Below are positions 45,392 to 60,171 of a DNA stretch of 60,171 nucleotides, in pieces (position 1 is the stretch's first letter; each line of letters opens with the position of its first letter). The notes under the pieces are model-generated. The model saw only the letters and a list, made by a program, of their open reading frames with translations. It made no database searches and was not told the DNA's origin. The DNA is from Parcubacteria group bacterium. GTDB taxonomy: Bacteria > Patescibacteriota > Minisyncoccia > Moranbacterales > UBA2206. The position numbers were made by a program, and so were the translations under genes. The stretch is taken from positions 1 through 60,171 of the forward strand of contig JBAYLE010000005.1 of assembly GCA_041664225.1 (NCBI GenBank), read 5' to 3'.

Positions 45392-45392
45392 C

Positions 45393-45857
45393 CTAGTAAT
45401 TTTTCAGCGCCCTTTTTATCCTTCTTTCGCTTTCTTTTTTGGCGAGGTCTTCGCGCTTATCAAACTTCTTTTTTCCTTTACCAACGCCAAACTCTAACTT
45501 CAATAGTCGCTTTTTAGTATACACTCGAATTGGCACCAGTGTCAAGCCTTCTGTGCGCACTTTGCCGATTAAACGGCGGATTTCCGCTTTGCGGAGCAAA
45601 AGCTTCCTCGGGCGGGTCGGTTCGTAGTTTTTTATCTCACCGGCGTGTTTCCAAGGCGTGATATGGGCGTTAGTCAGGTATAATTCTGCGCCCTTAACTG
45701 TGACAAAGCTTTCTTTGAGGCTGATATGGCCGGCTTTGACCGATTTCACTTCTTGGCCGGTCAAAACCAAGCCAGCCTCGTATTTGTCCGAAATTTGGTA
45801 GTCAAAATTAGCGCGCTTGTTGTAGGCTGCAGTTGTCATGTTTAAAGTATAGAGCAT
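45393..45857 (-). CDS. smpB: SsrA-binding protein SmpB
   Basis: NKRANFDY ... EAGLVLTGQEVKS ... YEPTRPRKLLL ... GKGKKKFDKRE. Confidence 0.95.
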   Translation of the reverse strand: MLYTLNMTTAAYNKRANFDYQISDKYEAGLVLTGQEVKSVKAGHISLKESFVTVKGAELYLTNAHITPWKHAGEIKNYEPTRPRKLLLRKAEIRRLIGKVRTEGLTLVPIRVYTKKRLLKLEFGVGKGKKKFDKREDLAKKESERRIKRALKNY

Positions 45858-45915
45858 TAATCAGAAAGTATAAAGTTTCTACGTTTCCTAAAGCAAAAAT
45901 ACAAAAAACAGTTTC

Positions 45916-45944
45916 TTGACAAGAGTTTTTATCTGAATTAGCAT
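45916..45944 (+). promoter_or_regulatory. Promoter TTGACA-N17-TAGCAT heading the Hxs-like cluster
   Basis: Hexamers read directly, about 30 nt upstream of the first cluster gene. Confidence 0.55.
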
Positions 45945-45977
45945 TAATAGGACTTTAAATAAAATTTTACTGAATTT

Positions 45978-46436
45978 ATGAAGAAAAACTTAGGAGATAA
46001 TGCTATCACTTTTTCATTAAATACAAACATTTACACGCCGGAGATAATTTATAAAACGTGCTATGTTTTCATTGATCGGATGTATATTTATCTTGATCAG
46101 CCAGAAAAAAATCTAATCACGGCATCTCTTAGGGGTAAACGTGAACTAAATCAAGGGGAGCTAAAAAAGCTAGAAGGAGAGTTTTTCAATGAGCTTTTGA
46201 ACACAAAACTGCGGGAAGAAATTTCCAGGAAAAACGCGAAACTTTTAGAATATATAGTGGGAGGGGCAATAAACGCTGCGCTGGAAAAGGATGAAAATTC
46301 CGGCAAAGATGAATTCGCCGATATTGAAAAGGAAATAAGGCAGCTGGATGAAGAATTGGCAGAAATGGACAAGGCGGATTATAAAAAAGACTCTCTTAAT
46401 ATCAGGCAAATCAAGAAGATTAATAAAAAGAAATAA
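45978..46436 (+). CDS. hxsD: HxsD-like protein (His-Xaa-Ser system)
   Basis: EFFNELLNTKLREEI resembles the LLNDYxLRE signature I recall for the HxsD family. Acidic coiled-coil tail. Confidence 0.55.
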   Translation: MKKNLGDNAITFSLNTNIYTPEIIYKTCYVFIDRMYIYLDQPEKNLITASLRGKRELNQGELKKLEGEFFNELLNTKLREEISRKNAKLLEYIVGGAINAALEKDENSGKDEFADIEKEIRQLDEELAEMDKADYKKDSLNIRQIKKINKKK

Positions 46437-46663
46437 TGGCAAAGTATCAAAAATCAATAAACTTTTGCAGCAGCTTGTATTCAGAAAAAAGCATCAAGGA
46501 GGCCACAAATGAATACAAAAAAGCCTATGGCGGAAAAATCGGCTTTGAAATTTTAAAGGAAAAGGGATATACACAAATAAAGTTATTATTAAACGATAAT
46601 AATTTGGGTGACAATATTGCGGATGAATTTTCCAATTATTTGTTGTTTTTGAACATACAATGA
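46436..46663 (+). CDS. Short HxsD-like paralogue (ends just after the EFxNYLL motif)
   Basis: The template SINFCSSLYSEKSIKEA ... IKLLL ... ADEFSNYLLFL parallels the N-terminal half of the 45978 protein. TAATG and ATGA overlaps with both neighbours. Confidence 0.45.
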   Translation: MAKYQKSINFCSSLYSEKSIKEATNEYKKAYGGKIGFEILKEKGYTQIKLLLNDNNLGDNIADEFSNYLLFLNIQ

Positions 46664-48126
46664 AAAAAGATGAATCTTTTTTAGTAAAAAATAGGAAGCT
46701 GGATAAATTTTATTTCAGGCAGCTTCGGGAAAAAACTCTCATTACTAATGATGGCGGAAATTGGATTTCTTTGCCGAATGATGATTTTAGGCGTTTTATT
46801 TCAGGAAAAATAAAGAACACAGAAAAGCTGTACCAGGAACTTGAAAAAAAAGGATTCATAAATGTCGGAAAGAAAAAACTTTCTGAATTAGCCAGCCAGT
46901 ATTTAAAATTAAACTACTCGCTTTCTCAGGGGCCTTCTCTTTTTATCATTGTTCTTACGCTGCGGTGCAACCACCGCTGTTTGTATTGCCAGGTTATTCC
47001 GGAAAATCCCAAGCAGAAAGGTTTTGATATGGGCAAAGCAACTGCCAAGAAAACGGTTGATTTGATTTTCCGGACTCCCTCAGAAAGTGTCCGTCTTGAA
47101 TTTCAAGGCGGAGAGCCACTACTCAACTGGCCAGTGTTGAAATACGTTGTGAAATATGCCAAAGAAGTGAATAAAAAGAAGAAAAAAAATTTAAAAATAA
47201 GCATTGTTTCCAATCTTTCCTTGATGGATGACGAAAAATTGAAATTTCTGCTGGACGAGGAAGTTGACATTGCTTGCTCGTTGGATGGGCCGGCTAAAGT
47301 GCATGATAAGAACAGAACATATTTGGACGGCGCTAGCAGCCATAAAGTTGTATCCGTCAAAATAAAAAAAATTCAAAAAGAAATCAAAAAAAAGCAAGAA
47401 AAAACAAAAGAAAAGACGGACAAATTGAATGCAATACTTACAGTTACTAAATTTTCCCTCCCGTACTATAAAGAAATTATTGACGAATATATGAGCTATG
47501 GCCTGGATAATGTTTTTATCAGGCCGCTGAGCCCTTTCGGCCTGGAACGAAAAACAACTGACCTAATCGGTTATACGGCGGAAGAGTTTTTGGAATTTTA
47601 CAAAAAATCCTTGGATTACATAGTGGAATTGAACTTAAAGGGGAAACTTTTTGCGGAAAGAGGAACATTCAATATCCTAAGAAAAATATTAAAGCAAGAG
47701 GATCCCAATTTTCTGGAATTGCGTTCGCCATGCGGGGCAGGAATCGGGCAGATGGCTTTTGACTATGACGGAAAAATATTTACTTGCGATGAGGGCAGGA
47801 TGGCGCGCCGGATGAGCCATGATAACTTTATGATAGGCGAGGTAGATGATAATGACTATAACCGGCTGATTGATAATGAAGTTGTAAAAACTATGTGCCT
47901 GGCATCCTCTCTGGATAATCATGCCGGCTGTCAAGATTGCGTCTATAAACCATATTGCGGAGTTTGTCCCTTGGCTAATTATATCGAGTGCGGAACGATT
48001 TTTCCCCAGTTAGCCAATACGTTGCGATGCCGGATAAATAAGGGCATCTTTGACTATATATTCCGAAAGATGGGGGACAAAAAATACCGAACCGTTTTTG
48101 AAAGCTGGGTGGGTAAGGGGTTATAA
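46660..48126 (+). CDS. hxsB: Radical SAM / SPASM-domain maturase, HxsB-like
   Basis: CNHRCLYC (CxxxCxxC), FQGGEPLL, C-terminal CGAG ... CDEG ... CQDCVYKPYCGVCP (SPASM-type Cys pattern). Confidence 0.7.
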   Translation: MKKDESFLVKNRKLDKFYFRQLREKTLITNDGGNWISLPNDDFRRFISGKIKNTEKLYQELEKKGFINVGKKKLSELASQYLKLNYSLSQGPSLFIIVLTLRCNHRCLYCQVIPENPKQKGFDMGKATAKKTVDLIFRTPSESVRLEFQGGEPLLNWPVLKYVVKYAKEVNKKKKKNLKISIVSNLSLMDDEKLKFLLDEEVDIACSLDGPAKVHDKNRTYLDGASSHKVVSVKIKKIQKEIKKKQEKTKEKTDKLNAILTVTKFSLPYYKEIIDEYMSYGLDNVFIRPLSPFGLERKTTDLIGYTAEEFLEFYKKSLDYIVELNLKGKLFAERGTFNILRKILKQEDPNFLELRSPCGAGIGQMAFDYDGKIFTCDEGRMARRMSHDNFMIGEVDDNDYNRLIDNEVVKTMCLASSLDNHAGCQDCVYKPYCGVCPLANYIECGTIFPQLANTLRCRINKGIFDYIFRKMGDKKYRTVFESWVGKGL

Positions 48127-48165
48127 TTCTTTTTAGGGGCTGTGGACAACATGGTGGGCGGTGTA

Positions 48166-48195
48166 TTTACATAATTATGCGGGTTATGGTATAAT
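48166..48195 (+). promoter_or_regulatory. Internal promoter TTTACA-N18-(TG)G-TATAAT in front of the precursor gene
   Basis: Extended -10 TGGTATAAT read directly. Short AT-rich leader with no SD. Confidence 0.5.
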
Positions 48196-48222
48196 ATAAA
48201 CATAAAAATTTCTTATAAAAAA

Positions 48223-48477
48223 ATGGCAAGGAATAAAAAAATCCCTCAAATTAAAAAAAACATTAAAGTATTTTTGCAAAGTGAGGAAGGAAAGATTGTC
48301 GAAAAAGATGCCGTCAAGCTGGGCATAGCTTTAATCGCGGCGGCGGGCATTATAAGCGGGATAGCCAAGCCGGACGCAACCCAGGCAGGATGCCACTCTT
48401 CCCACTCTTCCCATGGCTCGCATGGCTCCCATGGCTCGCATGGCTCCGGCAGCGGGTGCCAGATCGGCGGGTGGTAA
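48223..48477 (+). CDS. hxsA: His-Xaa-Ser repeat peptide (HxsA-like candidate precursor)
   Basis: C-terminal C-HSS-HSS-HGS-HGS-HGS-HGS-GSGC-QIGGW. N-terminal basic segment followed by a hydrophobic helix (KLGIALIAAAGIISGIA). Confidence 0.7.
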   Translation: MARNKKIPQIKKNIKVFLQSEEGKIVEKDAVKLGIALIAAAGIISGIAKPDATQAGCHSSHSSHGSHGSHGSHGSGSGCQIGGW

Positions 48478-48496
48478 TAAAGTTTAATAACATATT

Positions 48497-49273
48497 ATGG
48501 CAAAAAAAATAATACTTGCATTAATTGTTGTTGTGATCTTGGTTGTCATAGCCTTAGTTGGTGGCAACATCTCAAAAAATAAAAAAGCAAGCGAGGTGAA
48601 CCAACAAAATAATGATTTGAAGGTGGTGAAAAACGTTCCTTGTCCAGAGGCTTTTAATCCTGAAAAAGCATCAGAAAATTTTGACAAGCTTGCTCCTTCT
48701 ACTAAAGATCTGCTTGGCCAGTACTCTTTTTGTAAGGCTGCTTTGGACGGCGATAAGACAATTTGTGGCAAGTTGCCGCCCAGCTATGAAAAATCAACTT
48801 GTGAGGACGATTATGGTACCGGAGTTGATGTGTTTTTGACGAAAATATTGGGGAAGAAAAATTTTACCGATGATGACGTTAAATATTGCGTTGATAAAAA
48901 TATTTTTGGCGTAGCCGATTTGGAACAAAGGGGGAATCGATGCCGGACAACGCTTACAGCCATATTCAGCCAAGATGTCAAAATTTGCGACCAGGAAACC
49001 AGTGATTATGGAAAGGCCAATTGCATCAATGTTGTCTCGGGCAAGCCAAGCGCTGGCAACTGCGATAATGTCTCAAATGAAGAGAGCAAAGAAATGTGCA
49101 AAATCAGGGCTAAATTCATCCAGACTCTTAAGTTCGAAAAAACAGCTGTCAATTGTGATGCTATATCGGAGCAATATATCAAATTTAATACCCTCTGCCG
49201 GTTGCATTTTCTCTCCTCGTGCGATGATTTTTTGAAGCAATTGCGGGATAATTACTTTTGCGTGGGAAATTAA
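48497..49273 (+). CDS. Membrane-anchored exported protein with 14 spaced cysteines
   Basis: N-terminal TM IILALIVVVILVVIALV. Cysteines recur every 10-25 aa (for example CPEAF, FCKAAL, ICGKL, TCEDD, YCVDK). Confidence 0.65.
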   Translation: MAKKIILALIVVVILVVIALVGGNISKNKKASEVNQQNNDLKVVKNVPCPEAFNPEKASENFDKLAPSTKDLLGQYSFCKAALDGDKTICGKLPPSYEKSTCEDDYGTGVDVFLTKILGKKNFTDDDVKYCVDKNIFGVADLEQRGNRCRTTLTAIFSQDVKICDQETSDYGKANCINVVSGKPSAGNCDNVSNEESKEMCKIRAKFIQTLKFEKTAVNCDAISEQYIKFNTLCRLHFLSSCDDFLKQLRDNYFCVGN

Positions 49274-50317
49274 ATGGAAATAGTCCTGGTTGTTACAAAG
49301 CAATGCAACTTTGCTTGCCGGTATTGCTATGAAAAAAACAAAAAAATAGCGGGGGGAAAAATGCCTTTCGAAACAGCCAGAAAAATTCTGGATTTTTTTT
49401 TACCGCATTTACGCGCTGGTGATGCGGTGCATTTATTCGGCGGCGAGCCGCTTCTGGTTTTCCCTCTAATCAAAAAAATTATCAGCCATATCAAATCAGA
49501 AAATAGCAAGGTTCAAATCAGATTAGATACAAACGGCTCTCTGCTTTCCGGCAGAATCCTCGATTTTCTAAGGAAAAATAAAGTCAGCCTGACACTCAGT
49601 ATGGATGGCGGTCCGGAAACGCAAAACTGCAACCGCTGCGCTCAAGACAAAGCTGTGGACACTTATGATATTATTGCCAAAAGCAATTTTTTTAAAAAAA
49701 TTGTCAGTTATCCGCAACTGCAGATTAATCAAGTTGCCGCTATGAATAGGATTAACTTTTTGGCTCAGGATTTTTTCCACCTGGTTAAATTGGGCTTTAG
49801 AAATATAAATATTAAGGAAGAGAAGGGGAAAATTTGGCCGAAGACAAAACTGGAGGTACTGGAAAAAGAGCTGCGCAAAATTAATTATTACTGCCTGAAA
49901 CACCGGCAGAATATTAAGATAAAACATCTGAGCGGATATTTGGACAATCCCAAAAGCGGATTGCGGAAGAGCATGGAATGCCATCCTGAGCAGATGGTCG
50001 TCGCCCTGCCTAGCGGAGATATTTTTCCGTGCTCGGCAGTGTTGAGCGTGACAAAAAAACTCTATCTGGAAAGCATGAAGGTAATCTCTGCCACCGATTT
50101 GGAAAAGATCAAGCATAAAGAATTTTTCAAAATCAAGCGTCAAGCCTACTTGAAGGCTTATGATAAAATGAAACAAGATACGATGTTTATGGGCAAGAAA
50201 GTGCTATGCGCCGCTTTGCTTAAGAATCAAGACAATTTGAATTTAAAGAAGATGCATGAAAATGAAAAACAGAAAGCTAGTGTTTTCAACCGCAGCATAA
50301 AATATTTTCTCAAATAA
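49274..50317 (+). CDS. Radical SAM enzyme (possible HxsC counterpart)
   Basis: CNFACRYC, FGGEPLL. The start abuts the previous stop. Confidence 0.7.
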   Translation: MEIVLVVTKQCNFACRYCYEKNKKIAGGKMPFETARKILDFFLPHLRAGDAVHLFGGEPLLVFPLIKKIISHIKSENSKVQIRLDTNGSLLSGRILDFLRKNKVSLTLSMDGGPETQNCNRCAQDKAVDTYDIIAKSNFFKKIVSYPQLQINQVAAMNRINFLAQDFFHLVKLGFRNINIKEEKGKIWPKTKLEVLEKELRKINYYCLKHRQNIKIKHLSGYLDNPKSGLRKSMECHPEQMVVALPSGDIFPCSAVLSVTKKLYLESMKVISATDLEKIKHKEFFKIKRQAYLKAYDKMKQDTMFMGKKVLCAALLKNQDNLNLKKMHENEKQKASVFNRSIKYFLK

Positions 50318-50331
50318 AAATATTTATCCTT

Positions 50332-51369
50332 ATGGCAGAAAAAAAGAAAGAAATCAGCTTGTTTATTGTCTTGACGCATAATTGCAATTTTCATTGCCGT
50401 TATTGCGAAATATGCAGCCATTTTTGCAAGGTTTGCAAAGGCAACTGCGTGATGACCGGAGAGACGATCAATAAAATCGAGGAATTATTGAAAAGATCGG
50501 AAAATGATTTTAAAAAAATCAACCTGTCTTTTTTTGGAGGCGAACCGTTGTTGCATTTTGACAAAATGAAGAAGTTAGTAGATAGGGTGAGAAAATCAAA
50601 AAATAGTAACAAATATGAAATTTATCTTTATACCAACGGGTATCTGCTGGATAAGAAAAAGATCGAGTATCTTAAAAAAAACAAGGTGCAAGTCAGTTTA
50701 AGTTTCGACGGCAGAGAAAAAACACAGAATTTAAATCGCCCGTTAAGAGAAAATAATGGAGAGACATATAAAACAGTGCTTGAAAACATTAAAACTTTAC
50801 GCTCCAGAAACAAAATTTTTTCCGATGTGAATTTGTACATGACATCATTTCCATCTTTGGCAAAAGATCTTTTTGAAGATTTCAAACACATGCTACGCTT
50901 GGGATTTCGCAGATTTGAATTAGTGCCGGCGGTTTCAGGCAGGGGATCATGGGACTGGAATGAAGAACAATTAAAGGTGTTTGAAAAAGAGCTAGAAAAA
51001 ATAAAAAAATTAGCGGTAAGGCTCCATAAGGCTGGAATAAATTTGATTTTTCAGGAAGTATCTGAAATCAAGAATCCCGAACGCTACTTTGAAAACTTCG
51101 GCCAAAATATTTTCAGCATTGATTCAAATGGCAGTGTTTATTCCTCGCCATATTATTTGGTCCTGACTGAACCGCATCGGGGAAAATACAGAATTGGGCA
51201 TGTAACAACGGCCAAAAATATCAAGGATGATTTTTTGGGTAAAAAAGATCTGCTCAATTCAGGGGATTTATTTAAATTATATTATATCAACAAGGGGAAT
51301 AATCTCAGAAGCATGGTTATCTGCAATAAAAAATTATGCGAAATAAGAAAATTGATAAAATATACCTGA
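50332..51369 (+). CDS. Radical SAM enzyme with an extra Cys cluster directly after the SAM motif
   Basis: CNFHCRYCEICSHFCKVCKGNC, FFGGEPLL. Confidence 0.7.
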   Translation: MAEKKKEISLFIVLTHNCNFHCRYCEICSHFCKVCKGNCVMTGETINKIEELLKRSENDFKKINLSFFGGEPLLHFDKMKKLVDRVRKSKNSNKYEIYLYTNGYLLDKKKIEYLKKNKVQVSLSFDGREKTQNLNRPLRENNGETYKTVLENIKTLRSRNKIFSDVNLYMTSFPSLAKDLFEDFKHMLRLGFRRFELVPAVSGRGSWDWNEEQLKVFEKELEKIKKLAVRLHKAGINLIFQEVSEIKNPERYFENFGQNIFSIDSNGSVYSSPYYLVLTEPHRGKYRIGHVTTAKNIKDDFLGKKDLLNSGDLFKLYYINKGNNLRSMVICNKKLCEIRKLIKYT

Positions 51370-52343
51370 AAAATGTTTGCCGATCGATTTCCGGGCTTTC
51401 CGGCATAAGCCGGCCTGGAAAGTTAGCAATGCAAAAAGCGAAAAAATTTGTTTCGCTTTTATATTTGGCAAATTCGCAAAACAGCAATTTTTTGTCCGAC
51501 GATTTTTACTTTGGTTTTTCGCTAAAAATAAAGAGAGGCAATGGAAAAATAATTCCGTCAATCAGGATACTGAACCACAATTATTATCCCAGGGTGACAA
51601 GCGAGCTGCAAAGGGAAAAAATTTATAAAAAGAGAGGACAGATCATAAAGCACATTTTCAAGGCCCTGAATTTTTCAACCGAAAAAAATCTCACGACCAT
51701 CGATTATTTGCTGGAAAAAACTTACGATAAGAATGTCCTCTTGCCGGTGCAATTCGATGCTAATTTTGAGAAAAATAAGAATGCGCTCAAGGTTTATTTT
51801 TGGTGCGGGATCAAATATTCCACGCGGGAGCATAAGTACGCAGTATTGAAGGAAATTCTAGGGAAAGAAAAAATGGCAGATGACATTCTTTTTCTTCGCA
51901 ACAGAAACATCGAATTATTCAGTTTTGATTTTGGGGAAAAAAAGAAAGGCGCCAAAATTTACGTGCGTTACCGCATGAATTCGAGGGAATTTTACGCGGA
52001 TTTAAAAAAGTTTAATTTTAAAAAAGAAACGATCGCGGATATCAATAAATTCTTCTTTGCTCACAAGGAGTATTTGCAGCCAGATGTCACAATTTGTTAT
52101 AATGTCGCGGGCAGGGCTCTCTCTATGAAAAAAATCGAGCTTTTTTTGGATAAAAAAGTAGAAAGAAAAACCGTAATAGCAAAAAAAGTGGCGGCGGATT
52201 TCACCCGTAAATTCTCAGAAAAATTCATCGCTCCTCTTGAAACGGAAGACTTTTTTGGGGAATCATATGCTTACGCGGTAGGAGAAAATTTTATAGCCGT
52301 CTATTTCCAGAAAATAAAATCAGAAAGAAATAGGTCTGGTTAA
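51336..52343 (+). CDS. Unknown beta-strand-rich protein (speculative ABBA-prenyltransferase-like fold)
   Basis: Recurrent strand-like segments FGFSLKI, ALKVYFWCG, LFSFDFG..GAKIYVRY, DVTICYNV, FIAVYFQ. The start is uncertain: 51336 overlaps the upstream gene by 34 nt, and the next ATG is at 51429. Confidence 0.5.
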   Translation: MRNKKIDKIYLKNVCRSISGLSGISRPGKLAMQKAKKFVSLLYLANSQNSNFLSDDFYFGFSLKIKRGNGKIIPSIRILNHNYYPRVTSELQREKIYKKRGQIIKHIFKALNFSTEKNLTTIDYLLEKTYDKNVLLPVQFDANFEKNKNALKVYFWCGIKYSTREHKYAVLKEILGKEKMADDILFLRNRNIELFSFDFGEKKKGAKIYVRYRMNSREFYADLKKFNFKKETIADINKFFFAHKEYLQPDVTICYNVAGRALSMKKIELFLDKKVERKTVIAKKVAADFTRKFSEKFIAPLETEDFFGESYAYAVGENFIAVYFQKIKSERNRSG

Positions 52344-52363
52344 GCAAATAATCTTTATAAAAA

Positions 52364-53254: not shown

Positions 53255-53260
53255 CTTTTT

Positions 53261-54220: not shown

Positions 54221-54228
54221 CAACCGTC

Positions 54229-55362
54229 ATGCTAAAAAACAATTTAAAACTAAGAGAAAAAGCCGCGGAAGAAAAAAGGCAGTGGGTGAGAATCACCAGA
54301 GCGTGCAACAATGATTGCCTTTTTTGTTTGGATCAAGAAGCCCATAACGGGAAACTTGTTCCGATAACAGAAGTGGTGAGAGTTTTGAAGCAGGGGGGAA
54401 AGGAAGGAGCGGCCAGAGCTATCATTTCCGGCGGAGAGCCGACTCTTCATCCGCAAGTTTTTGAAATAATTAGAAAAGCAAGGCAATTGGGCTACAAGCA
54501 TGTTCAGATGATCAGCAATGGCCGGATGCTGGCTTATGAAAATTTTGTCCAAAAGCTCAAAGAGGCTGGTTTAGATGAGGTTACCCTCTCCTTGCATAGC
54601 CATAAAAAAAATGATTTTGAAAAAATGTCAGGCGTGAAAGGAAGCTACTTACAGGCGATGCGGGGGCTCAAGAACGCTTTGGACAATAATTTCATTGTGA
54701 GCGTGGACATCGTGATCAATAAGATAAATTACAAGACACTCAAAGAAACAATGATTTTTTTTGAAAAAATGGGAGTATCTGAATTCGATCTTTTGCACCT
54801 AGTTCCATTTGGAAGTGCCTGGAAAAACAAGGATCAGTTGTTCTTTTCTTCAGCAGAGGCAAAAAAATATTTGCACCGGGCTTTTCAATTAGGGAAAAGA
54901 AAAAATTTATTCATCTGGACCAATCGTTTGCCGGCAGCATATTTGGAGGGCTTTGAAGAATTGATCCAGCATCCTATCAAAATGTCCGGTGAGATCAAGG
55001 GGATGGAAAGAAACTTTTTAGAATTTGTGAAAAGCGGCAAAAAAATGCCATGTTTTGGCGAAAGATGCGAATTTTGCTTTCTCCATGATTTTTGCGCTGA
55101 TCTTTCCGAGTTACGGGACAAAAAATTTTTGGAAGCCAAGCTGGCGCCTCCGTGTTTTGTGCAAAAAAAGGCTCCAAAAAAAGTGTTTAAATTCACGAAA
55201 AATTTTGATATCTATGAATTTTTGAAATTTTTTATTGACCATCGTTATTTTATTAAGAGTACTGGTTGCAGTAATTGCAAATACGACCAGCTTTGCCAGG
55301 GCGCCCAAATCAACGAGATCAGGAGCAAGGGATTCAAAATTTTAAAATCCATTAAAAAATAG
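54229..55362 (+). CDS. Radical SAM enzyme, CNNDCLFC subgroup
   Basis: RACNNDCLFCLD, ISGGEPT, ISNGRML, SLHSH, C-terminal CSNCKYDQLCQG. Confidence 0.7.
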   Translation: MLKNNLKLREKAAEEKRQWVRITRACNNDCLFCLDQEAHNGKLVPITEVVRVLKQGGKEGAARAIISGGEPTLHPQVFEIIRKARQLGYKHVQMISNGRMLAYENFVQKLKEAGLDEVTLSLHSHKKNDFEKMSGVKGSYLQAMRGLKNALDNNFIVSVDIVINKINYKTLKETMIFFEKMGVSEFDLLHLVPFGSAWKNKDQLFFSSAEAKKYLHRAFQLGKRKNLFIWTNRLPAAYLEGFEELIQHPIKMSGEIKGMERNFLEFVKSGKKMPCFGERCEFCFLHDFCADLSELRDKKFLEAKLAPPCFVQKKAPKKVFKFTKNFDIYEFLKFFIDHRYFIKSTGCSNCKYDQLCQGAQINEIRSKGFKILKSIKK

Positions 55363-55371
55363 TTACTGTTT

Positions 55372-56307
55372 ATGGCAAATATTGGATATATTCAAATCAC
55401 GCGCGAATGCAACCAGAAATGCATCATATGTTCCAATCCGCCGACGGACCAGTTTCTTGAATTTGCTCAAGCTAAAAAAGAAATAGACGGTCTAAAAGCG
55501 AAGGGATGCAGCGGAGTTATTTTTACCGGCGGGGAACCGACTCTTTACGCAAAACTTCCAGAACTTATCAAATATGCTTCGCGCGCCGGATTATTTCCCA
55601 GAATCATCACCAATGGCCAAAAGATTGCCAAGATTGCTTATTTGAAAGAACTCAAAAAAGCCGGGCTCAAGCATTTGCATCTTTCGGTTTATTCTGGCGA
55701 GGAAGGAATCCAAAGCCGGCTTTCCGGCAATAAAAATTCGCTGAAAAACATAAAGAAAGCTCTGGATAATTTGAAAAAAATCGGGGGGATCAGTGTGGAT
55801 GTCAATACAGCCATCAGCCGATACAATGCCGGGCACCTTTCAAAAACAGCAAGCTGGCTAATTGAGAGGTATCCCTTTATCAGCCATTTTGTTTTTAACA
55901 ATCTGGATCCTTTCATGAACCGGGTATCAGAGAATCCGGAAGTCGTGCCCAAGCTAGCTGACTTTGAGCTAGAACTGCATAAAACTTTAAAAATGCTGGA
56001 GCAAAACAAAAAGACATTCCGAGTCGAACGCGTGCCCCTGTGCTATCTGCCGGAATTTGAGCATATTGCCACGGAAACCAGAAAAATTATCAAAAGCGAA
56101 AGCCGTATGATTTTCTTTTTGGACCGGCGGGGTAAATTTGAGCAGACTGGTTTTCGTGAATACAAAAAATTTCCGCCCTGTCAGGCTTGTTCGCTTAAAA
56201 AAATTTGCGCCGGTCTTTATGCCAAGGGCGGGTATTATAGCGAAAAAGAACTTTTTCCGGTCTTTGTTGATCCTCAAAATATAATCGATAAAATCTCCAA
56301 AGGCTGA
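55372..56307 (+). CDS. Radical SAM enzyme, related subgroup
   Basis: RECNQKCIICSN, FTGGEPT, ITNGQK, C-terminal CQACSLKKICAG. Confidence 0.7.
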   Translation: MANIGYIQITRECNQKCIICSNPPTDQFLEFAQAKKEIDGLKAKGCSGVIFTGGEPTLYAKLPELIKYASRAGLFPRIITNGQKIAKIAYLKELKKAGLKHLHLSVYSGEEGIQSRLSGNKNSLKNIKKALDNLKKIGGISVDVNTAISRYNAGHLSKTASWLIERYPFISHFVFNNLDPFMNRVSENPEVVPKLADFELELHKTLKMLEQNKKTFRVERVPLCYLPEFEHIATETRKIIKSESRMIFFLDRRGKFEQTGFREYKKFPPCQACSLKKICAGLYAKGGYYSEKELFPVFVDPQNIIDKISKG

Positions 56308-56336
56308 CACTGGCAACTCAACAGTAATAAAAAAAT

Positions 56337-57263
56337 ATGGCGCTCAATTACATTCCATTGGCAATAATATTTTTCATCAGTTTTTTTGTATTAAAAGAAG
56401 ATTGGCAATATAAAAAAATCAGAAACAAATGGATAATGCTAGGTTTTTCGGCCGGAGCCGTATATCTTGTCATTTCTTATTTATTTGGAATAGTCAGCAT
56501 TGAGTATTTGGGAAAAATTGTTGCCAACACCGCCATTTCATTTTTAGTTGGTTTTCTTATTTGGCAATTCGGCTTCTGGCCTTCGGGAGACGCTAAGTTT
56601 TTTACGCTTATCGCTTTCTTGTTGCCGCTGGATCTTTACGCCCAGGCATATCTTTTTTATTTTCCTTCCTTTTGGTTGCTCTTCTATTCCTTTGCGGCGT
56701 TCTTGGTCTTCATCTTTTTTAAAGCGCTGATATTTTTTGTAAAATATTTATTTTCCCATCGGGGCAAGAGCGGCCGGACAAATGAATTGATAGCTGAGGT
56801 CATCAATTCCAAAAAATTATTAAATTTAAATTTTTGGGTAAAAATCGGCAAGCGGCTTGCGATTGGGCTGTTAATTTACTTTATCGCAGTCAAATTTTTT
56901 TTGAAAACCGACTTCAATTTTTGGAGGTTTATTATTTCGCTGGTTGTCTTCGCGGTCGTTCTGGCTCTCCTGGATTTTTATGTGGATCATAATTCCAGAT
57001 ATAAAATAAAAACGCTTGAGCTGAAAAAAGGCATGAATATATCCAAAGAAACTTTAGCTGAGATCAAGAAAGACAATAACTTTCCTGAATTAGCGGGGAA
57101 AATTTTTCCGGAAGGACTGACTGAAAAACAGGCGTCAGCAATTAAAAATTACTTGGCAGGCAGAGATATTCAAGAAATTTATATTTTCAAGACTATTCCT
57201 TTTGCCTGGTGGATAGTCTTGGGAGCCTTTTGGGTGGCGGTCTCATCCCAAAGATTATTCTGA
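56337..57263 (+). CDS. Polytopic membrane protein, A24 (prepilin/preflagellin peptidase)-like aspartic peptidase with inserted soluble domain
   Basis: Two Asp contexts as in the A24 family: LKEDWQYKKIRNKW and FWPSGDAKFFTLIA (GxGD-like). C-terminal IPFAWWIVLGA resembles the PilD-type ending. Confidence 0.55.
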   Translation: MALNYIPLAIIFFISFFVLKEDWQYKKIRNKWIMLGFSAGAVYLVISYLFGIVSIEYLGKIVANTAISFLVGFLIWQFGFWPSGDAKFFTLIAFLLPLDLYAQAYLFYFPSFWLLFYSFAAFLVFIFFKALIFFVKYLFSHRGKSGRTNELIAEVINSKKLLNLNFWVKIGKRLAIGLLIYFIAVKFFLKTDFNFWRFIISLVVFAVVLALLDFYVDHNSRYKIKTLELKKGMNISKETLAEIKKDNNFPELAGKIFPEGLTEKQASAIKNYLAGRDIQEIYIFKTIPFAWWIVLGAFWVAVSSQRLF

Positions 57264-57284
57264 GCACCTGTGGATAACGTGACT

Positions 57285-57314
57285 TTGGCAATTTGTATTG
57301 TTTTGTGGTATAAT
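57285..57314 (+). promoter_or_regulatory. Promoter TTGGCA-N18-(TG)G-TATAAT for the 916-aa gene
   Basis: Same extended -10 TGGTATAAT as at 48187-48195. SD-less AT-rich leader. Confidence 0.5.
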
Positions 57315-57358
57315 CAAAATGTTTGAAACTGCCCAAAACAATTTAAGTAAAACAAAAA

Positions 57359-60109
57359 ATGAAAAATTTATTTTCACAAAAAAAGGGCTGGGCTTTGATT
57401 TTCTTCCTCTTAGTTTTTTTAGTTACTTTTAGTTTCAGTGAAAAGGCGGAAGCTGCAATTTGTGGCTGTCCTAATAATAAAAACTGTCCTGCATCCTCCT
57501 CCTGCTACGACGATGGATATGGCAATTATAGTTGCTATTCATACTCAGGGGGTGACGGGTGTGTTGCCTGTACGCCATCTTTTCCTATTACCATTAATAG
57601 TTTTTATGCCAGCCCTCCTGCTGTTTTAAAAAATACCTCAACTACCCTGTATTGGAGTACCAGCGGTTCTGGAACCTATTCTTGCAAGGTGCAGTATTTA
57701 GTATACTGGCTTCCACCATCTTATCGCGTATTGTCTGCCACAGCGACAAGCGGTTCAGTAGTAATGGATCTTGATACTGAGGCAAAAAACGTGTCTTTAA
57801 TTTGTTGGCAGACGGCAGGGACGGGCCATACTACTTGTAATTCTGGGGCCAATGCCAAGATTACTGTTGATGTGCACAAAACCGAAACTAACAGCACAAC
57901 TACCACTTGCACATGCGATGGTTCGATTCCGGGTGGGAGTGTCACTTGCCCGGGAGCCGGTAATCCTTGGACATCCGGAGTTCCAGCTTCCTGGCACAAT
58001 GTAGGTTCTTGCACGGGACAGCCCTGTGAATACACGACGCCGGCGCCTACCTGCAGTATCTCATATTCCCCAGGTACAATTACCTCTCCGGGCAGTTCCA
58101 CAGCCACGGTGACTATGAATAATGTTACCAGCGCCACCTATGGCTGTACCGGCCCTCAACCGGTTGCATCTGGAAGCGGCTTGGGTGTTGCCGCCAGTGC
58201 TACTTATGTATTTACCTTTCCTGCTGGCCAAACCGGCACGGAAACATGCACAGCGTCCGTGTCAGGTCCTGGTGGTTCAAGCTCTTGCAGCGGTTCAGTT
58301 GTTGTTAACGCTCCCGCCAACCAAGATCCTGAAGGCGGAGTAGAGTCTGGAGGAACTTGTACTAATGGCACCATACATCTTTGGGGCTGGGCTATTGACC
58401 GAGACGCACTCACTACCAGCATACCCGTCCATTTTTACGAAGGCGGAACCTACAAAGGTCAATGTAATACCACTACGCTTAGATCCGATATCAATACCGC
58501 CTATGGTACCACTGGCAACCATGGCTTTGACTGCTATATTTCTGGATTTTCTGCTGGCAACCATACCATTACAACGTATGCAATCAATACTCCAGCTGGC
58601 AATAATCCGGCTTTGCCTTGGGGGACCAATCCGCAAACTGTCAATTGCCCCGTAACTGACTGCGCCCTCCCCTGGGGCGGCACGCTAGCCAATGGTTCCA
58701 GCGTTACTGCCTATCAGGCCAGCTCGGTTCCATGCGGATCCACTTGCACCAGCCAAACTAGAACCTGCAACAGCGGTACCTTAAGCGGCACCTACACCAG
58801 CCAGACCTGTTCGGTATCCGGTTGTCTTTCCTGCAACCGTCCTTGTGGCGGATCAACCATCAGTGGCAACTGGGGCGCTTTATGCTATCAATCCGCCTCC
58901 GTACCGTGCGGATCCAGTTGTTCCTCATCCCAGGGTTACTGTAATAATGGTCTCTGGACAACCCCATATGCGGCTGGTTCTACCGCAGCCAGTTGTAGCG
59001 TAGCGGCTTGCGTTTCTTGTGCCTCTCCTTGCGGACTTTCCGCCACGACTAGTGGTAATTGGGGGCCTTTCTGTTATCTGGCCAGTTCAGTGCCTTGCGG
59101 ATCCAGTTGTTCCTCATCCCAAGGTTATTGTTTTAATGGTAACTGGATAACTCCATATACGGCTGGCTCTACCGCAGCCAGTTGTAGCGTAGCGGCTTGT
59201 CCGACTTGCACCCTCCCATGGGGCGGCACGATTGCCAATGGCTCCAGTGTCACCGCCTACCAAAACAGCTCTGTTGCTTGTGGCAGTAGTTGCGTCAGTC
59301 AAACCCGTACCTGTAACAGCGGAGTTCTGAGCGGCACTTACACTAATCAGAATTGTTCTGTGGCGGCTTGTTCCTGCAATTTGCCGTGGGGCGGTACTCT
59401 AGCCAATGGCTCTAGTGTCACTGCCTACCAAGCCAGCTCCGTGCCTTGCGGTTCCAGCTGTTCTAGTCAAACCAGAACATGCAATAGCGGAGTTCTCTCT
59501 GGCAGCTACACCAGTCAGACTTGCAGCGTGGCGGGCTGTACTTCCTGCGTCTCTCCTTGCGGACTGGCTGCTACGGCCAGCGGCAATTGGGGAGCCTTCT
59601 GCTATCTGGCCGGTTCTGTCCCTTGTGGATCAAATTGTCTTTTGATTGCATCAGAGGGTTACTGTCAAAACGGTGTCTGGACAACACCTTACGCTGTTGG
59701 CGCCACTAGTGGGTCTTGTAGTGTAGCAGCTTGCGCTTCCTGCGTCTTGCCATGGGGTGGCAGCATTCCTTCCGGCAACAACGTTGTTGCTTATCAAGCT
59801 AGTTCCGTTCCGTGCGGATCCAGTTGCTCTCCCCAAGTGAGAACCTGCACCAACGGCTTCCTGAGCGGCAGCTATGCCAATCAAAATTGCTCGGCCACCG
59901 GTTGCCTCGGCTGCACTGCGCCGTGGGGAACAGCAATGGTTTCTGGCGGAGCAGTCACTGCCTGCCAATCCGCTTCCGTCCCGTGTGGGTCAAGCTGTGC
60001 CTGTGAAACTCGCACCTGTACCAACGGCGTTCTTTCTGGCAGCTTCACTGTTCAAGGACCTTGCAGCGTCCAAGTTTGTGACAAAAATTGGAAAGAAGTG
60101 GCCCCTTAA
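57359..60109 (+). CDS. Large exported Cys/Ser/Thr/Gly-rich modular repeat protein
   Basis: N-terminal KKG-WALIFFLLVFLVTF hydrophobic segment, a central GW...HGF beta-domain, and eight C-terminal Cys-rich modules of two types. Confidence 0.8.
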   Translation: MKNLFSQKKGWALIFFLLVFLVTFSFSEKAEAAICGCPNNKNCPASSSCYDDGYGNYSCYSYSGGDGCVACTPSFPITINSFYASPPAVLKNTSTTLYWSTSGSGTYSCKVQYLVYWLPPSYRVLSATATSGSVVMDLDTEAKNVSLICWQTAGTGHTTCNSGANAKITVDVHKTETNSTTTTCTCDGSIPGGSVTCPGAGNPWTSGVPASWHNVGSCTGQPCEYTTPAPTCSISYSPGTITSPGSSTATVTMNNVTSATYGCTGPQPVASGSGLGVAASATYVFTFPAGQTGTETCTASVSGPGGSSSCSGSVVVNAPANQDPEGGVESGGTCTNGTIHLWGWAIDRDALTTSIPVHFYEGGTYKGQCNTTTLRSDINTAYGTTGNHGFDCYISGFSAGNHTITTYAINTPAGNNPALPWGTNPQTVNCPVTDCALPWGGTLANGSSVTAYQASSVPCGSTCTSQTRTCNSGTLSGTYTSQTCSVSGCLSCNRPCGGSTISGNWGALCYQSASVPCGSSCSSSQGYCNNGLWTTPYAAGSTAASCSVAACVSCASPCGLSATTSGNWGPFCYLASSVPCGSSCSSSQGYCFNGNWITPYTAGSTAASCSVAACPTCTLPWGGTIANGSSVTAYQNSSVACGSSCVSQTRTCNSGVLSGTYTNQNCSVAACSCNLPWGGTLANGSSVTAYQASSVPCGSSCSSQTRTCNSGVLSGSYTSQTCSVAGCTSCVSPCGLAATASGNWGAFCYLAGSVPCGSNCLLIASEGYCQNGVWTTPYAVGATSGSCSVAACASCVLPWGGSIPSGNNVVAYQASSVPCGSSCSPQVRTCTNGFLSGSYANQNCSATGCLGCTAPWGTAMVSGGAVTACQSASVPCGSSCACETRTCTNGVLSGSFTVQGPCSVQVCDKNWKEVAP
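58661..60078 (+). repeat. Eight tandem coding modules (about 55-65 aa each) of two alternating types, order A-B-B-A-A-B-A-A
   Basis: Type A: C.LPWGG.(I/L)ANGSSVTAYQ.SSV.CGS.C.SQTRTCNSG.LSG.YT.Q.CSV..C. Type B: C.SC..PCG....SGNWG..CY...SVPCGS.C....GYC.NG.W.TPY..G....SCSVAAC. Confidence 0.85.
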
Positions 60110-60171
60110 CCTTATAGGTAACAACTAATTTTTAATAAACATAAAAAAATGGAAAACAAAAAAATCACCAC

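Follow-up and report, generated by a model that had tools for sequence, protein, structure and literature searches.

The locus raised the question of whether the many radical-SAM genes packed around a short His-Xaa-Ser (HxS) peptide gene form a single maturation system, and how such a system relates to the known Hxs system. The window analysed is a 60,171-nucleotide stretch of a Parcubacteria group bacterium contig (JBAYLE010000005.1). The initial annotation had placed 14 closely spaced open reading frames on one strand near its end, and all 14 (g1 to g14) were recovered on the plus strand with the same coordinates; all features described below lie on that strand. Thirteen of them, g1 to g13 (45978-57263, about 11 kb), are co-directional and tightly packed, with successive intergenic gaps of -1, -4, 96, 19, 0, 14, 59, 20, 6, 8, 9 and 29 nt. 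When 51336 is taken as the start of g8, the 59-nt gap between g7 and g8 is replaced by an overlap of 34 nt. We infer that g1 to g13 work as a single operon-like cluster that matures the 84-aa HxS peptide g4. The last gene, g14 (57359-60109), encodes a secreted repeat protein of 916 aa with 79 cysteines. It matches nothing in Pfam, NCBIfam or the PDB, lacks a homologue in all 49 related loci, and is probably an adjacent gene outside the cluster, so that the 14 genes first counted become 13.

Promoter-like sites were considered as consensus matches only. The reported TTGACA-N17-TAGCAT is present upstream of g1 (45916-45944) and matches 10/12 positions. Two more sites (48098-48195) are found at the 96-nt gap before the peptide gene, namely TTGAAA-18-TATAAT (48098-48127) and TTTACA-18-TATAAT with a TG (48166-48195), each matching 11/12. 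The separate promoter proposed for g14 likewise has a consensus match (57285-57314, 11/12). The sites before g4 and g14 are therefore stronger than the one before g1. Such matches are frequent in the AT-rich DNA of the window, with 55 observed versus 32.8 +/- 6.4 in shuffled sequences.

Which of these genes belong to an Hxs system? The four profile accessions given in the initial annotation (TIGR03976 HxsD, TIGR03977 HxsC, TIGR03978 HxsB and TIGR03979 HxsA) were right. HxsD and HxsB scored above their cut-offs, and no window protein reached the equivalog cut-off of HxsC or HxsA among the NCBIfam profiles. As to the two proteins called HxsD-like, g1 (45978-46436, 152 aa) is HxsD at 54.2 bits to TIGR03976 (cut-off 50). 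Its orthologues in related loci share 42-57% identity and belong to Pfam PF27806 HxsD, and a degenerate LLNxxLRE motif can be read in its sequence as ELLNTKLREE. The second, g2 (46436-46663, 75 aa), fell below the HxsD_rel cut-off (NF038315, 37.9 bits against 41); orthologues of 74-81 aa occupy the equivalent position in loci L001, L003, L005, L012, L020 and L043. The next gene, g3 (46660-48126, 488 aa), is an HxsB radical SAM/SPASM-type maturase (TIGR03978, 508 bits, cut-off 370); CNHRCLYC stands at residue 103, and cysteines cluster near the C-terminus at 413-457. It has more than 3400 homologues, and the best of them, some labelled Patescibacteria, are 55-67% identical. The peptide g4 (48223-48477) finds its best family matches among the HxsA families, with HxsA3 (NF038309) at 48.6 bits under a cut-off of 65. 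It consists of a conserved basic leader, a hydrophobic helix and the segment C-(HxS)6-GSGCQIGGW, in which the six triplets announced in the initial annotation follow one another without a break (residues 58-75). Judged from these matches, an Hxs-type core of HxsD, HxsB and HxS-repeat peptide forms part of a far larger operon with many radical-SAM genes.

The initial annotation had regarded Hxs as a prediction with no known chemistry, which is now outdated. In E. coli, the four genes HxsDBCA form an antiphage system that blocks phage DNA entry (Li et al., Nat Commun 2026, PMC13128918). There, HxsD, HxsB and the HxS-repeat substrate are all needed for defence. HxsA undergoes radical-SAM-dependent N-terminal processing, is covalently modified within an HxS repeat, with +8 Da on an SHRSS motif, and acts extracytoplasmically (PMC13128918). 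The window cluster might therefore be a functional orthologue of this system, an envelope HxS peptide that blocks phage DNA entry, with the extra enzymes merely fitting the effector to a cell without periplasm. We regard this as possible but doubtful. These three components are common to both systems, and the membrane-insertion segment of g4 also speaks for it. Nevertheless, the four-gene form accounts for more than 99.8% of HXS systems, and 99.7% of the systems occur in Pseudomonadota (Li et al., PMC13128918), whereas the window cluster has nine genes more. Unlike E. coli HxsA, g4 has no peptidoglycan-binding domain, and its repeats lack basic residues. The flanking context also speaks against this equivalence, being a conserved housekeeping neighbourhood (ftsA, ftsZ, rplT, smpB) and no defence island. 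No cluster copies were found on viral contigs, and PADLOC returned nothing beyond generic viperin-type radical-SAM similarity.

The additional genes are dominated by radical-SAM enzymes. Six cluster proteins pass the Pfam Radical_SAM threshold and six CxxxCxxC motifs can be read in the sequence, in agreement with the six enzymes first counted. Besides g3, two of them are PapB-like. For g6 (49274-50317, 347 aa; Radical_SAM 56.4 bits), PapB is the best NCBIfam match, below its cut-off (135 bits against 340), and the full SPASM cysteine set is missing. For g7 (50332-51369, 345 aa), the assignment comes from profile matches and cysteine positions: four extra cysteines (28, 32, 35 and 39) stand right behind CxxxCxxC, and C-terminal SPASM cysteines are lacking. 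Both genes are also found on the contig of a close relative. The other three are HxsC-like at scores under the cut-offs. The best-conserved gene of the cluster is g9 (52364-53254, 296 aa), which matches HxsC4 (NF038332, 178 bits, cut-off 500) and HxsC (TIGR03977, 110.7 bits, cut-off 267.9) and has orthologues of 47-75% identity in 43 genome loci. The HxsC/MoaA-like g11 (54229-55362, 377 aa; MoaA 101.6, HxsC 98.8) has orthologues of 53-62% identity that come after g9 in most bacterial loci, and orthologues of g12 (55372-56307, 311 aa; HxsC 88.8 bits) occur in 16/21 bacterial loci at 52-66% identity. All three had been grouped as CNNDCLFC-type enzymes; this motif is present in g9 and g11, while g12 has CNQKCIIC.

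The 335-aa beta-rich protein that had been left without assignment, g8 (51336-52343), has no Pfam or NCBIfam match; it measures 335 aa from the ATG at 51336, or 304 aa from the ATG at 51429. Its AlphaFold model (pLDDT 91, pTM 0.89) contains five alpha-alpha-beta-beta units, and the top 50 Foldseek matches in the PDB are all ABBA prenyltransferases, with LimF as the best (E 7.5e-8). The nearest structures include peptide-acting prenyltransferases, among them LimF and KgpF. The literature names LimF as a peptide prenyltransferase for 'histidine-C-geranylation', the term in the title under which PMC13290415 cites it. By its predicted structure, g8 is thus an ABBA (PT-barrel) prenyltransferase-fold protein. 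It is homologous to proteins of about 262 aa in related clusters (hhalign probability 98%, E 2.3e-13). Across the family K121, K176 and Y178 never vary and Y123 and Y292 hardly do; all five are on strands in the model. Alternatively, g8 might be a barrel with no catalytic activity or use a different substrate.

The cluster ends with g13 (56337-57263, 308 aa), a polytopic membrane protein. The A24-like peptidase claim held at the family level: g13 itself stays below the Pfam Peptidase_A24 cut-off (18.7 against 26.5 bits), and 13/13 family members match the model, at best with E 6.3e-8. Two aspartates, D22 (EDxxxKKIxN) and D85 (WPxGDAK), are invariant, and a homologue is found in 13/21 bacterial loci, mostly directly behind g12. 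We assign g13, from its sequence, to a conserved, divergent family of A24 (GxGD-type) aspartyl peptidases. The HD-domain call for g10 (53261-54220, 319 aa) was confirmed by Pfam HD (34.9 bits, cut-off 22; residues 185-269, C-terminal to an unassigned N-terminal half); its place in the cluster was not. A relative with a 79%-identical g8 retains g5-g9, g11 and g12 in order and lacks g10 between g9 and g11. No homologue of g10 was found in the 49 related loci or in a metagenome scan, and the gene is, on this distribution, a lineage-specific insertion. By cysteine count and alignments, g5 (48497-49273, 258 aa) is the N-terminally membrane-anchored protein with 14 cysteines that had been described. 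It can be aligned with proteins of 255-257 aa in L007 and L014 and is a remote homologue of the 14-16-Cys proteins of about 315 aa that follow the peptide elsewhere (hhalign 97.4%, E 1.4e-11).

Is this arrangement unique to the window? The initial annotation had asked whether the gene set co-localises in other genomes. It is no one-off expansion and recurs in at least 40 loci from dozens of independent genomes, in Patescibacteria and beyond, with up to nine radical-SAM genes per locus. Related loci in Patescibacteria, Omnitrophota and Schekmanbacteria carry 3-9 such genes; DPANN-labelled archaeal MAG loci carry 1-8, together with precursors that have the same leader. The order HxsD-HxsD'-HxsB-(rSAM)-peptide-Cys protein-...-PT-like-g9-g11-g12-A24 is seen in L001-L005, L007-L018, L042 and L043. 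The conserved parts are HxsD, the small HxsD-like protein, HxsB, the peptide, the 14-Cys membrane protein, the PT-like protein, g9, g11, g12 and the A24 protein. The extra radical-SAM set varies among loci, and in the window it comprises g6 and g7. We found no description of an expanded multi-radical-SAM Hxs cluster in the literature searched, in line with what the initial annotation had supposed.

Repetition in dozens of independent genomes argues that the arrangement is not due to chance. The one point in favour of a fortuitous neighbourhood or a foreign island of recent acquisition is base composition: the cluster has a GC content of 0.381, below the 0.429 of the upstream 46 kb. The impression of an A/T- and Lys-rich cluster beside a G/C-rich g14 (0.520) was accurate, but GC3 is similar throughout (0.38-0.47 in the cluster, where g10 is lowest with 0.328, and a native-like 0.46 in g14). 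The GC differences are therefore attributed to amino-acid content, Lys-rich proteins in the cluster versus a Ser/Thr/Gly/Cys-rich g14, and not to foreign origin. In GCA_021785125.1, moreover, the cluster occupies the equivalent chromosomal site (rplT-rpmI-infC-smpB) with flank proteins 71-76% identical, which suggests vertical inheritance. Recurrence, GC3 and this shared insertion site together refute chance or a foreign island, to which we give practically no credence. From these comparisons, the window cluster appears to be one Patescibacteria representative of a recurrent cluster type that is related to the four-gene Hxs system but expanded.

A different separation is conceivable, in which the accessory radical-SAM, HD and PT-like proteins serve a small-molecule or cofactor pathway that merely lies beside a minimal Hxs core. 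In its favour, g9, g11 and g12 show similarity to cofactor enzymes of the MoaA, NirJ and AhbD type as well, and some loci contain g9-g11-g12-g13 with no visible Hxs core, though most such contigs are incomplete. However, the two modules share a contig in all long-enough bacterial loci (L011, L012, L014, L016-L018, L042 and L043), HxsD and/or HxsB directly adjoin g9 in L020, L021, L025, L044 and L048, and the HD protein is not conserved. By contrast with a separate pathway, one enzyme co-varies with the peptide: a PapB-like radical-SAM gene lies between HxsB and the peptide gene in 8/8 loci with a peptide terminating in GGWC and in 0/9 loci with a different peptide end, the window among them. 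This ties at least one accessory enzyme to the peptide, and we consider a separate pathway improbable. The extra radical-SAM enzymes might still act on g5 or a small molecule instead of g4.

The reading we favour, with moderate confidence, is that g4 is guided by its leader, modified several times by radical-SAM enzymes and possibly prenylated, and that it is cut in the manner of a prepilin and exposed at the membrane, where it may serve as a barrier of the envelope. At least 17 loci, archaeal ones included, encode orthologous peptides with the leader ..IKKxLKxFLxSEEGKIxxK.., and from bacteria to archaea the basic leader is followed by K-[LMFA]-[GATS] and a hydrophobic helix of about 16 residues. 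The leader would be bound in the cytoplasm by the HxsD-type proteins and radical-SAM enzymes, whereupon HxsB, g9 (HxsC-like) and the remaining four radical-SAM enzymes would place several covalent modifications on C-(HxS)6-...C..GGW. An isoprenoid might be added by g8 to His, Trp or another residue. The helix would then insert in the membrane with the leader inside, and g13 would cleave at the K-L-G|hydrophobic junction in prepilin-peptidase fashion, although g4, unlike bacterial type IV pilins, has no Glu at +5 and its leader (about 33 aa) is long compared with those of prepilins. The mature peptide would remain helix-anchored on the outward-facing side of the membrane, possibly with an extracytoplasmic g5. 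The sub-threshold HxsC, HxsA and A24 scores, the lack of a peptidoglycan-binding domain, the housekeeping context and the merely generic PADLOC similarity weigh against this reading as well.

If the hydrophobic segment were instead a cleaved export signal, the modified His-rich core would be secreted as a released RiPP (bacteriocin, signal or metallophore). The leader-core layout of g4, the strong promoter-like sites before the precursor, the PapB/SCIFF-like radical-SAM enzymes and a prenyltransferase fold akin to that of cyanobactin enzymes are all compatible with such a product, and His-rich cores bind metals. Yet no exporter, ABC transporter or immunity gene was found in the cluster, an intramembrane A24-type protease cutting before the helix would free no soluble core, and a 14-Cys membrane protein is co-conserved. 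The shared chromosomal site, with the vertical inheritance it suggests, also fits a released product poorly, and we hold it to be unlikely. For the membrane-displayed peptide, analogy with E. coli HXS would make a barrier in the envelope, for instance one that excludes phages, the most likely role, closely followed in plausibility by a surface function in metal binding or host contact. Archaeal versions with up to 64 repeats suggest a polymer or structural role, a further point against equivalence with the E. coli system. A tiny-genome bacterium devotes 11 kb to a conserved gene cluster of a type that recurs in ultra-small bacteria and archaea.

Judged from its sequence, the cluster is real and conserved, and is an Hxs (His-Xaa-Ser) variant outside the canonical system. 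It is not canonical because the HxsC and HxsA equivalog tests gave scores below their cut-offs and the four-gene architecture is absent. The ORF list showed 14 genes on the plus strand, at the coordinates given in the initial annotation, and the 13 that we treat as the cluster (g1 to g13) run from 45978 to 57263. The intergenic gaps from g1 to g13 are -4 to 29 nt, except for 96 nt before g4; the gap before g8 is 59 nt, or a 34-nt overlap with the earlier of two candidate starts. The TTGACA-N17-TAGCAT site proposed as a promoter is present at 45916 with 10 of 12 positions matching, and the best promoter-like sites (11 of 12) lie directly before g4 (48098-48127 and 48166-48195) and before the adjacent gene g14 (57285-57314); all of these are identified by consensus matching only, and the DNA is AT-rich. 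Direct counting returned the six consecutive HxS triplets of g4 and the 14 Cys of g5 that had been noticed before, and six CxxxCxxC motifs.

The families that define the system, whose accessions the initial annotation gave correctly as TIGR03976 to TIGR03979, reportedly originate with Haft and Basu in 2011. Searched against NCBIfam, g3 (46660-48126, 488 aa) is an HxsB equivalog (TIGR03978, 508.1 bits against a cut-off of 370). Similarly, g1 (45978-46436, 152 aa) is an HxsD equivalog of the LLNDYxLRE family (TIGR03976, 54.2 bits against 50); the motif reads as a degenerate ELLNTKLREE, and g1 orthologues in related loci carry Pfam PF27806 HxsD. The best NCBIfam match of g2 (46436-46663, 75 aa) was HxsD_rel (NF038315), at 37.9 bits and below the cut-off of 41. 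The peptide g4 (48223-48477, 84 aa) has the tandem triplets expected of an Hxs substrate at residues 58-75. It scored below every HxsA cut-off (TIGR03979, 32.2 against 121.65; HxsA3, NF038309, 48.6 against 65; HxsA4, NF038313, 27.7 against 55). No Pfam domain was found in it, and it thus lacks a counterpart of the peptidoglycan-binding domain described in E. coli HxsA. Three radical-SAM (rSAM) enzymes resemble HxsC, all below the cut-off of 267.9 of the equivalog TIGR03977: g9 (52364-53254, 296 aa) at 110.7 bits, g11 (54229-55362, 377 aa) at 98.8 and g12 (55372-56307, 311 aa) at 88.8. Besides HxsC, the best match of g9 was HxsC4 (NF038332, 178 bits, cut-off 500), and g11 and g12 are HxsC/MoaA-like at about 89-102 bits in NCBIfam. 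The gene g9 lies 4.2 kb downstream of HxsB in the window. Among the related loci in other genomes, its orthologue directly follows HxsB in one (L025) and abuts the HxsD end of the core in four (L020, L021, L044 and L048). In place of a D-B-C-A organisation of four genes, the window has 13 in the order D-D'-B-A-...-C-like.

The best-scoring named families for g4, g9 and g2 are thus the NCBIfam variants HxsA3, HxsC4 and HxsD_rel; curators had therefore already recognised non-canonical Hxs systems whose HxsA-type peptides are short and which have a second HxsD-like protein. The window nevertheless scores below all three cut-offs, and so does the relative at locus L003. Our literature search found no paper on these four variants or on their multi-enzyme context. 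Neither did we find one on expanded or CPR/DPANN Hxs clusters, in line with the view that the expanded version had not been described, in a search that covered subscription journals thinly and in which absence is not proof.

The initial annotation had regarded Hxs as a comparative-genomics prediction only, which is now outdated. Li et al. (Nat Commun 2026, PMC13128918) demonstrated that the HxsD-HxsB-HxsC-HxsA set of E. coli protects broadly against phages by stopping their DNA from entering the cell. HxsC binds HxsD there, and HxsA is N-terminally processed in a manner dependent on HxsB, HxsC and HxsD, carries a +8 Da modification on the SHRSS motif of the last HxS repeat, and acts in the periplasm via a peptidoglycan-binding domain (PMC13128918). 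The window has in common with this system the HxsD and HxsB equivalogs, an HxsC-like rSAM partner, and a tandem His-Xaa-Ser substrate behind an N-terminal hydrophobic or signal region. A further likeness would be N-terminal processing of the substrate and its probable action beyond the cytoplasm. By contrast, the window has 13 genes rather than four; its HxsC-like enzymes are three paralogues far below the HxsC cut-off and not adjacent to HxsB; and its substrate is only 84 aa long, with no peptidoglycan-binding domain. It also adds a 14-Cys membrane protein, an ABBA prenyltransferase-like protein, an A24 peptidase and two PapB-like rSAM enzymes, and its host is of the Patescibacteria type, not a member of Pseudomonadota. 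The published survey, which was based on HxsA, placed 99.7% of HXS systems in Pseudomonadota and found four genes in more than 99.8% of them (PMC13128918). It probably missed the short, divergent HxsA-type peptides of the phyla considered here. By analogy with E. coli, phage exclusion might be the role of this cluster, a reading that we hold only tentatively; metal binding or host contact are the alternatives.

We then compared the substrates across loci. The bacterial peptides share a conserved basic leader, P.IKKxLKxFLxSEEGK[IM]..K., which is followed by K-[LMFA]-[GATS], a hydrophobic helix of about 16 residues, a KP.D linker and a (C)-(HxS)n-... core. In the archaeal proteins, the same leader and helix precede up to 64 HxS repeats (L044, 299 aa). 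Archaeal HxS proteins with 18 to 64 repeats are encoded at L044 (6856-7755, minus strand), L048 (3260-4126, minus strand) and L032 (439-831, plus strand), loci labelled Woesearchaeota or 'Methanosarcinales'; a run of masked bases (N) falls inside the repeat region of L048. A PapB-like rSAM gene lies between HxsB and the peptide gene in all eight loci whose peptide has a GGWC C-terminus and in none of the nine others. The window groups with loci L007 and L014, all three having no post-HxsB rSAM, no GGWC tail and a shorter Cys protein (255-258 aa). We also considered the post-HxsB rSAM of the relatives as a counterpart of HxsC and rejected it, as it is PapB/HxsB-like and not HxsC-like.

Chance juxtaposition of the genes can be rejected, since the gene set recurs widely in related loci. 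HxsB homologues number more than 3400 at E <= 1e-30, and the closest with a source name (55-67% identity) carry Patescibacteria, Moranbacteria or Parcubacteria labels. HxsB homologues with 46-67% identity were found in large numbers among metagenomic Patescibacteria and other uncultured phyla. The typical order in the contigs of HxsB relatives is HxsD, a 74-aa HxsD-like protein, HxsB, a PapB-like rSAM and an HxS peptide of about 80 aa, followed by a 14-Cys membrane protein of about 315 aa, HemN-, MiaB- or PapB-like rSAM enzymes, an unknown protein of about 262 aa, the g9 orthologue, YcaO in some loci, and the g11 orthologue. A scan with the g9 alignment, taking one genome per species, returned 43 loci with Patescibacteria, Omnitrophota and Schekmanbacteria labels as well as archaeal MAGs (Nanoarchaeota, Woesearchaeota, Aenigmatarchaeota, "Methanosarcinales"); a scan of viral contigs for g9 gave no match. 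In the synteny comparison, a block g9-g11-(x)-g12-g13 recurs (g11 in 17, g12 in 16 and g13 in 13 of the 21 bacterial ones). The HxsD-HxsB-peptide-Cys protein block is recurrent too, with an rSAM complement in between that differs among loci. ORFs with an N-terminal CxxxCxxC within 10 kb either side of g9 number 3-9 in bacterial and 1-8 in archaeal loci; the six of the window are therefore a typical number and not an extreme one. In the closest relative (JGI sample 3300075153, g8 79% identical), g5-g6-g7-g8-g9-g11-g12 follow one another in order with no HD gene. One cluster, L005 (GCA_021785125.1), occupies the same chromosomal site as that of the window (rplT-rpmI-infC-smpB), with flank proteins 71-76% identical.

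All six rSAM enzymes (g3, g6, g7, g9, g11 and g12) combine CxxxCxxC with Pfam PF04055 at 51.6-88.9 bits, against a cut-off of 29.5. They differ in the C-terminal part: g3 has seven C-terminal Cys including CQDCVYKPYC, g9, g11 and g12 have one CxxCx5C each, and g6 (49274-50317, 347 aa) and g7 (50332-51369, 345 aa) are devoid of SPASM-type Cys motifs. Pfam SPASM (PF13186) was not among the domains returned for the proteins of the window; it is precomputed for several HxsB homologues. PapB/ranthipeptide, SCIFF and CcpM-type maturases give the best scores for g6, g7 and the post-HxsB rSAM of the relatives, and the presence of the latter co-varies with the C-terminal Cys of the peptide. These scores (128-158 bits overall, 128-135 for g6 and g7 in NCBIfam) are, however, far below the cut-offs of 340 and above, and the window differs from PapB/SCIFF-type systems further in the missing SPASM Cys of g6 and g7 and the missing post-HxsB enzyme. 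Residues 18-39 of g7 contain the rSAM motif and, immediately after it, four further Cys (CNFHCRYCEICSHFCKVCKGNC). These may make up an additional metal or Fe-S site at the N-terminal end of an enzyme without C-terminal SPASM Cys. Related Patescibacteria clusters (L003, 12348-18945; L001, 14006-16503) also contain a HemN-like rSAM of the class C methyltransferase type, and L003 in addition has a MiaB-like rSAM of the methylthiotransferase type and a YcaO protein. The absence of HemN- and MiaB-like rSAM enzymes and of YcaO from the window points to very different modification sets acting on nearly the same peptide. Directly upstream of HxsD, L001 encodes a cysteine desulfurase, NifU, a flavodoxin-reductase-like protein and a ferredoxin (6631-9263), which would be consistent with Fe-S clusters and electrons being provided locally to the many rSAM enzymes.

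Two of the remaining proteins, g5 and g8, had no Pfam match, as was also the case for g14. The 258-aa g5 (48497-49273) is a remote homologue of the membrane proteins of about 315 aa with 14-16 Cys encoded after the peptide gene in other loci (hhalign 97.4%, E 1.4e-11), and is therefore a conserved component. The gene g8 starts at 51336 or 51429 and ends at 52343 (335 or 304 aa). A search of 5.8 billion proteins turned up only three close relatives of it, and a scan of metagenome contigs found none. When a mixed g8 alignment was used in a word-indexed protein search, only 7 proteins were retrieved; it took an exhaustive profile search to reveal the family, which comprises 44 clusters at 50% identity, including the ~262-aa proteins of loci L016 and L043. 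Independent subfamily profiles matched each other (hhalign 98%, E 2.3e-13). Neither g8 nor nine of its relatives matched Pfam or NCBIfam, so that by sequence-family membership they fall outside the ABBA prenyltransferases.

The AlphaFold model of g8, built on a 43-sequence alignment (pLDDT 91, pTM 0.89), has five alpha-alpha-beta-beta units, a pattern already the same in an earlier 7-sequence model. The ten-stranded antiparallel PT-barrel of ABBA prenyltransferases is thus present as a predicted structure. All of the top 50 Foldseek matches in the PDB were ABBA prenyltransferases, with TM-scores of 0.4-0.59; LimF ranked first (E 7.5e-8), followed by DMATS1, KgpF, CdpNPT, FunA and DciF. The predicted five-fold barrel is thereby shared with cyanobactin F-family and other ABBA enzymes (LimF, KgpF, DMATS, FunA, DciF), and the top matches include enzymes that prenylate residues in peptides. 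By contrast, sequence identity to ABBA prenyltransferases is only 10-14%, and g8 sits in an rSAM cluster, not in a cyanobactin pathway. Within the family, K121, K176 and Y178 are invariant and R46, R69, Y123 and Y292 nearly so; all except R69 lie on strands of the model. With their i/i+2 spacing, the conserved Lys-x-Tyr pairs should share a strand face and point into the barrel. In sequence pattern they are reminiscent of the diphosphate-binding K-x-Y pairs of DMATS enzymes, to which they may correspond. FunA is a free-histidine prenyltransferase. Cyanobactin F-family enzymes share the ABBA barrel and KgpF is a Trp prenyltransferase, according to a 2026 review (PMC13290415), which cites LimF under the title "histidine-C-geranylation". 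Overall, the model reveals what is predicted to be a new sequence-orphan family of ABBA-fold prenyltransferase-like proteins.

The last gene of the cluster, g13 (56337-57263, 308 aa), matched Pfam Peptidase_A24 (PF01478) below threshold (18.7 bits, cut-off 26.5). All 13 aligned family members matched this domain at E <= 0.1 (best 6.3e-8), and one also matched Arc_PepC, the archaeal A24 C-terminal domain; a PDB sequence search with the family profile gave no match. D22 (EDxxxKKIxN) and D85 (WP[AS]GDAK), which we take from the known A24 motifs to be the catalytic aspartates, are invariant in the 13 sequences. A24 enzymes such as PilD, FlaK and PibD cleave where a basic leader on the cytoplasmic side gives way to a hydrophobic helix. 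The K-[LMFA]-[GATS] element and its hydrophobic stretch of ~16 residues were present in all bacterial peptides inspected, with a similar pattern in the archaeal proteins. Since g4 has exactly the layout that A24 enzymes cut, we propose a prepilin-like cleavage at K-L-G|I, putatively by g13. The cluster thus resembles type IV prepilin and archaeal class III systems in having a dedicated A24-family membrane aspartyl peptidase with both Asp motifs and a peptide with a basic N-terminal leader, a small residue and a hydrophobic helix. It differs from them in that it contains no pilus assembly genes, g4 has no Glu at +5 of the class III signal peptide and a long, highly conserved leader (~33 aa), and g13 has an extra C-terminal region. 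A secreted bacteriocin is argued against by the cluster having no exporter. A membrane-inserted peptide with a prepilin-like cleavage remains our preferred reading.

Two genes were excluded as conserved components. The HD-domain gene g10 (53261-54220, 319 aa; Pfam HD at residues 185-269) was rejected as a conserved accessory, being missing from the close relative and from all 49 loci of the synteny comparison. Its absence from the close relative's cluster, together with the lowest GC3 of the cluster (0.328), suggests a recent insertion. A metagenome-contig scan found no g10 relatives, a PDB sequence search gave only a predicted HD hydrolase (E 0.011), and residues 1-170 belong to no detectable family. 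The 916-aa g14 (57359-60109, plus strand) was rejected as a member, with no counterpart in any of the 49 loci and a promoter-like site of its own; the contig ends 62 nt past its stop codon. It is predicted to be secreted, with 79 Cys and ~1% Lys, and consists of repeats of ~55-60 aa (..PWGG..NGSSVTAYQ.SSVPCGS.C.SQTRTC.NG.LSG.Y..Q.CSV..C); TRF found a 168-nt repeat at 59219-59534, and NCBIfam and PDB sequence searches gave no match. Its G/C-richness, noticed by eye, comes from codon position 2 alone (0.66); its GC3, at 0.46, is native-like. The gene is a native neighbour.

The low GC of the cluster itself, also noticed by eye, is an amino-acid (Lys) effect, and a foreign island was rejected on the uniform GC3 across the window. 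That the cluster is a mobile defence island is argued against by its housekeeping context (ftsA, ftsZ, the rplT operon and smpB); PADLOC reported generic viperin-type rSAM similarity only. A tmRNA gene (Rfam 142 bits) and the adjoining smpB occupy 44973-45392 and 45393-45857 on the minus strand, with rplT, rpmI and infC beyond, and the cluster begins 120 nt past smpB on the other strand, as in GCA_021785125.1. We rejected the tmRNA gene as an integration site, as the cluster lies on its 5' side, beyond smpB, likewise in the related genome. Rfam found only the tmRNA over 44000-60171, with no riboswitch. A Peptidase_C39-like protein (41657-42481, plus strand, Pfam 51.8 bits) is encoded 3.5 kb upstream, with an HAD gene and the rplT operon in between; in other loci we saw no conservation of it next to the cluster.

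What the analysis shows directly is the gene content and its conservation, the assigned folds and motifs, and that one enzyme co-varies with one feature of the peptide. We propose that the HxS core would be modified in the cytoplasm under guidance of the leader by HxsB, the HxsC-like g9 and four further rSAM enzymes, with HxsD-type proteins as enzyme partners, as HxsD is for HxsC in E. coli, and possibly with a prenylation step by g8. The peptide would then be inserted into the membrane, lose its leader to g13, and be displayed on the membrane's outer face together with the 14-Cys protein. More speculatively, and with rather low confidence, the clusters of Patescibacteria, Omnitrophota and DPANN might make an undescribed, cross-domain class of ribosomal product: a pilin-like membrane peptide or polymer with 4 to ~64 HxS repeats, cross-linked by up to nine rSAM enzymes, prenylated by a new ABBA family and freed of its leader by a dedicated A24 peptidase, serving as a cell-surface structure important in ultra-small cells, for instance in phage exclusion or host attachment.

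Patescibacteria genomes are typically very small, about 1 Mb. For such a cell, devoting 11 kb to an operon that encodes six Fe-S radical enzymes is therefore a considerable outlay, and a related genome has retained the operon at this chromosomal position. The design recurs in Omnitrophota and DPANN-labelled archaea, which suggests that it either arose anciently or has moved repeatedly between ultra-small organisms. The pairing of RiPP-style maturation with prepilin-type processing suggests a link that we have not seen described. The connection of four-gene Hxs to phage defence is very recent, and the expanded clusters are natural variants, in repeat number, in the GGWC tail with or without its enzyme, and in HemN-, MiaB- and YcaO-type additions, that could help to solve the +8 Da chemistry. 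The value of the cluster thus lies in its breadth across ultra-small bacteria and archaea, a predicted new prenyltransferase-fold family, a possible link between RiPP and prepilin pathways, and a handle on Hxs chemistry.
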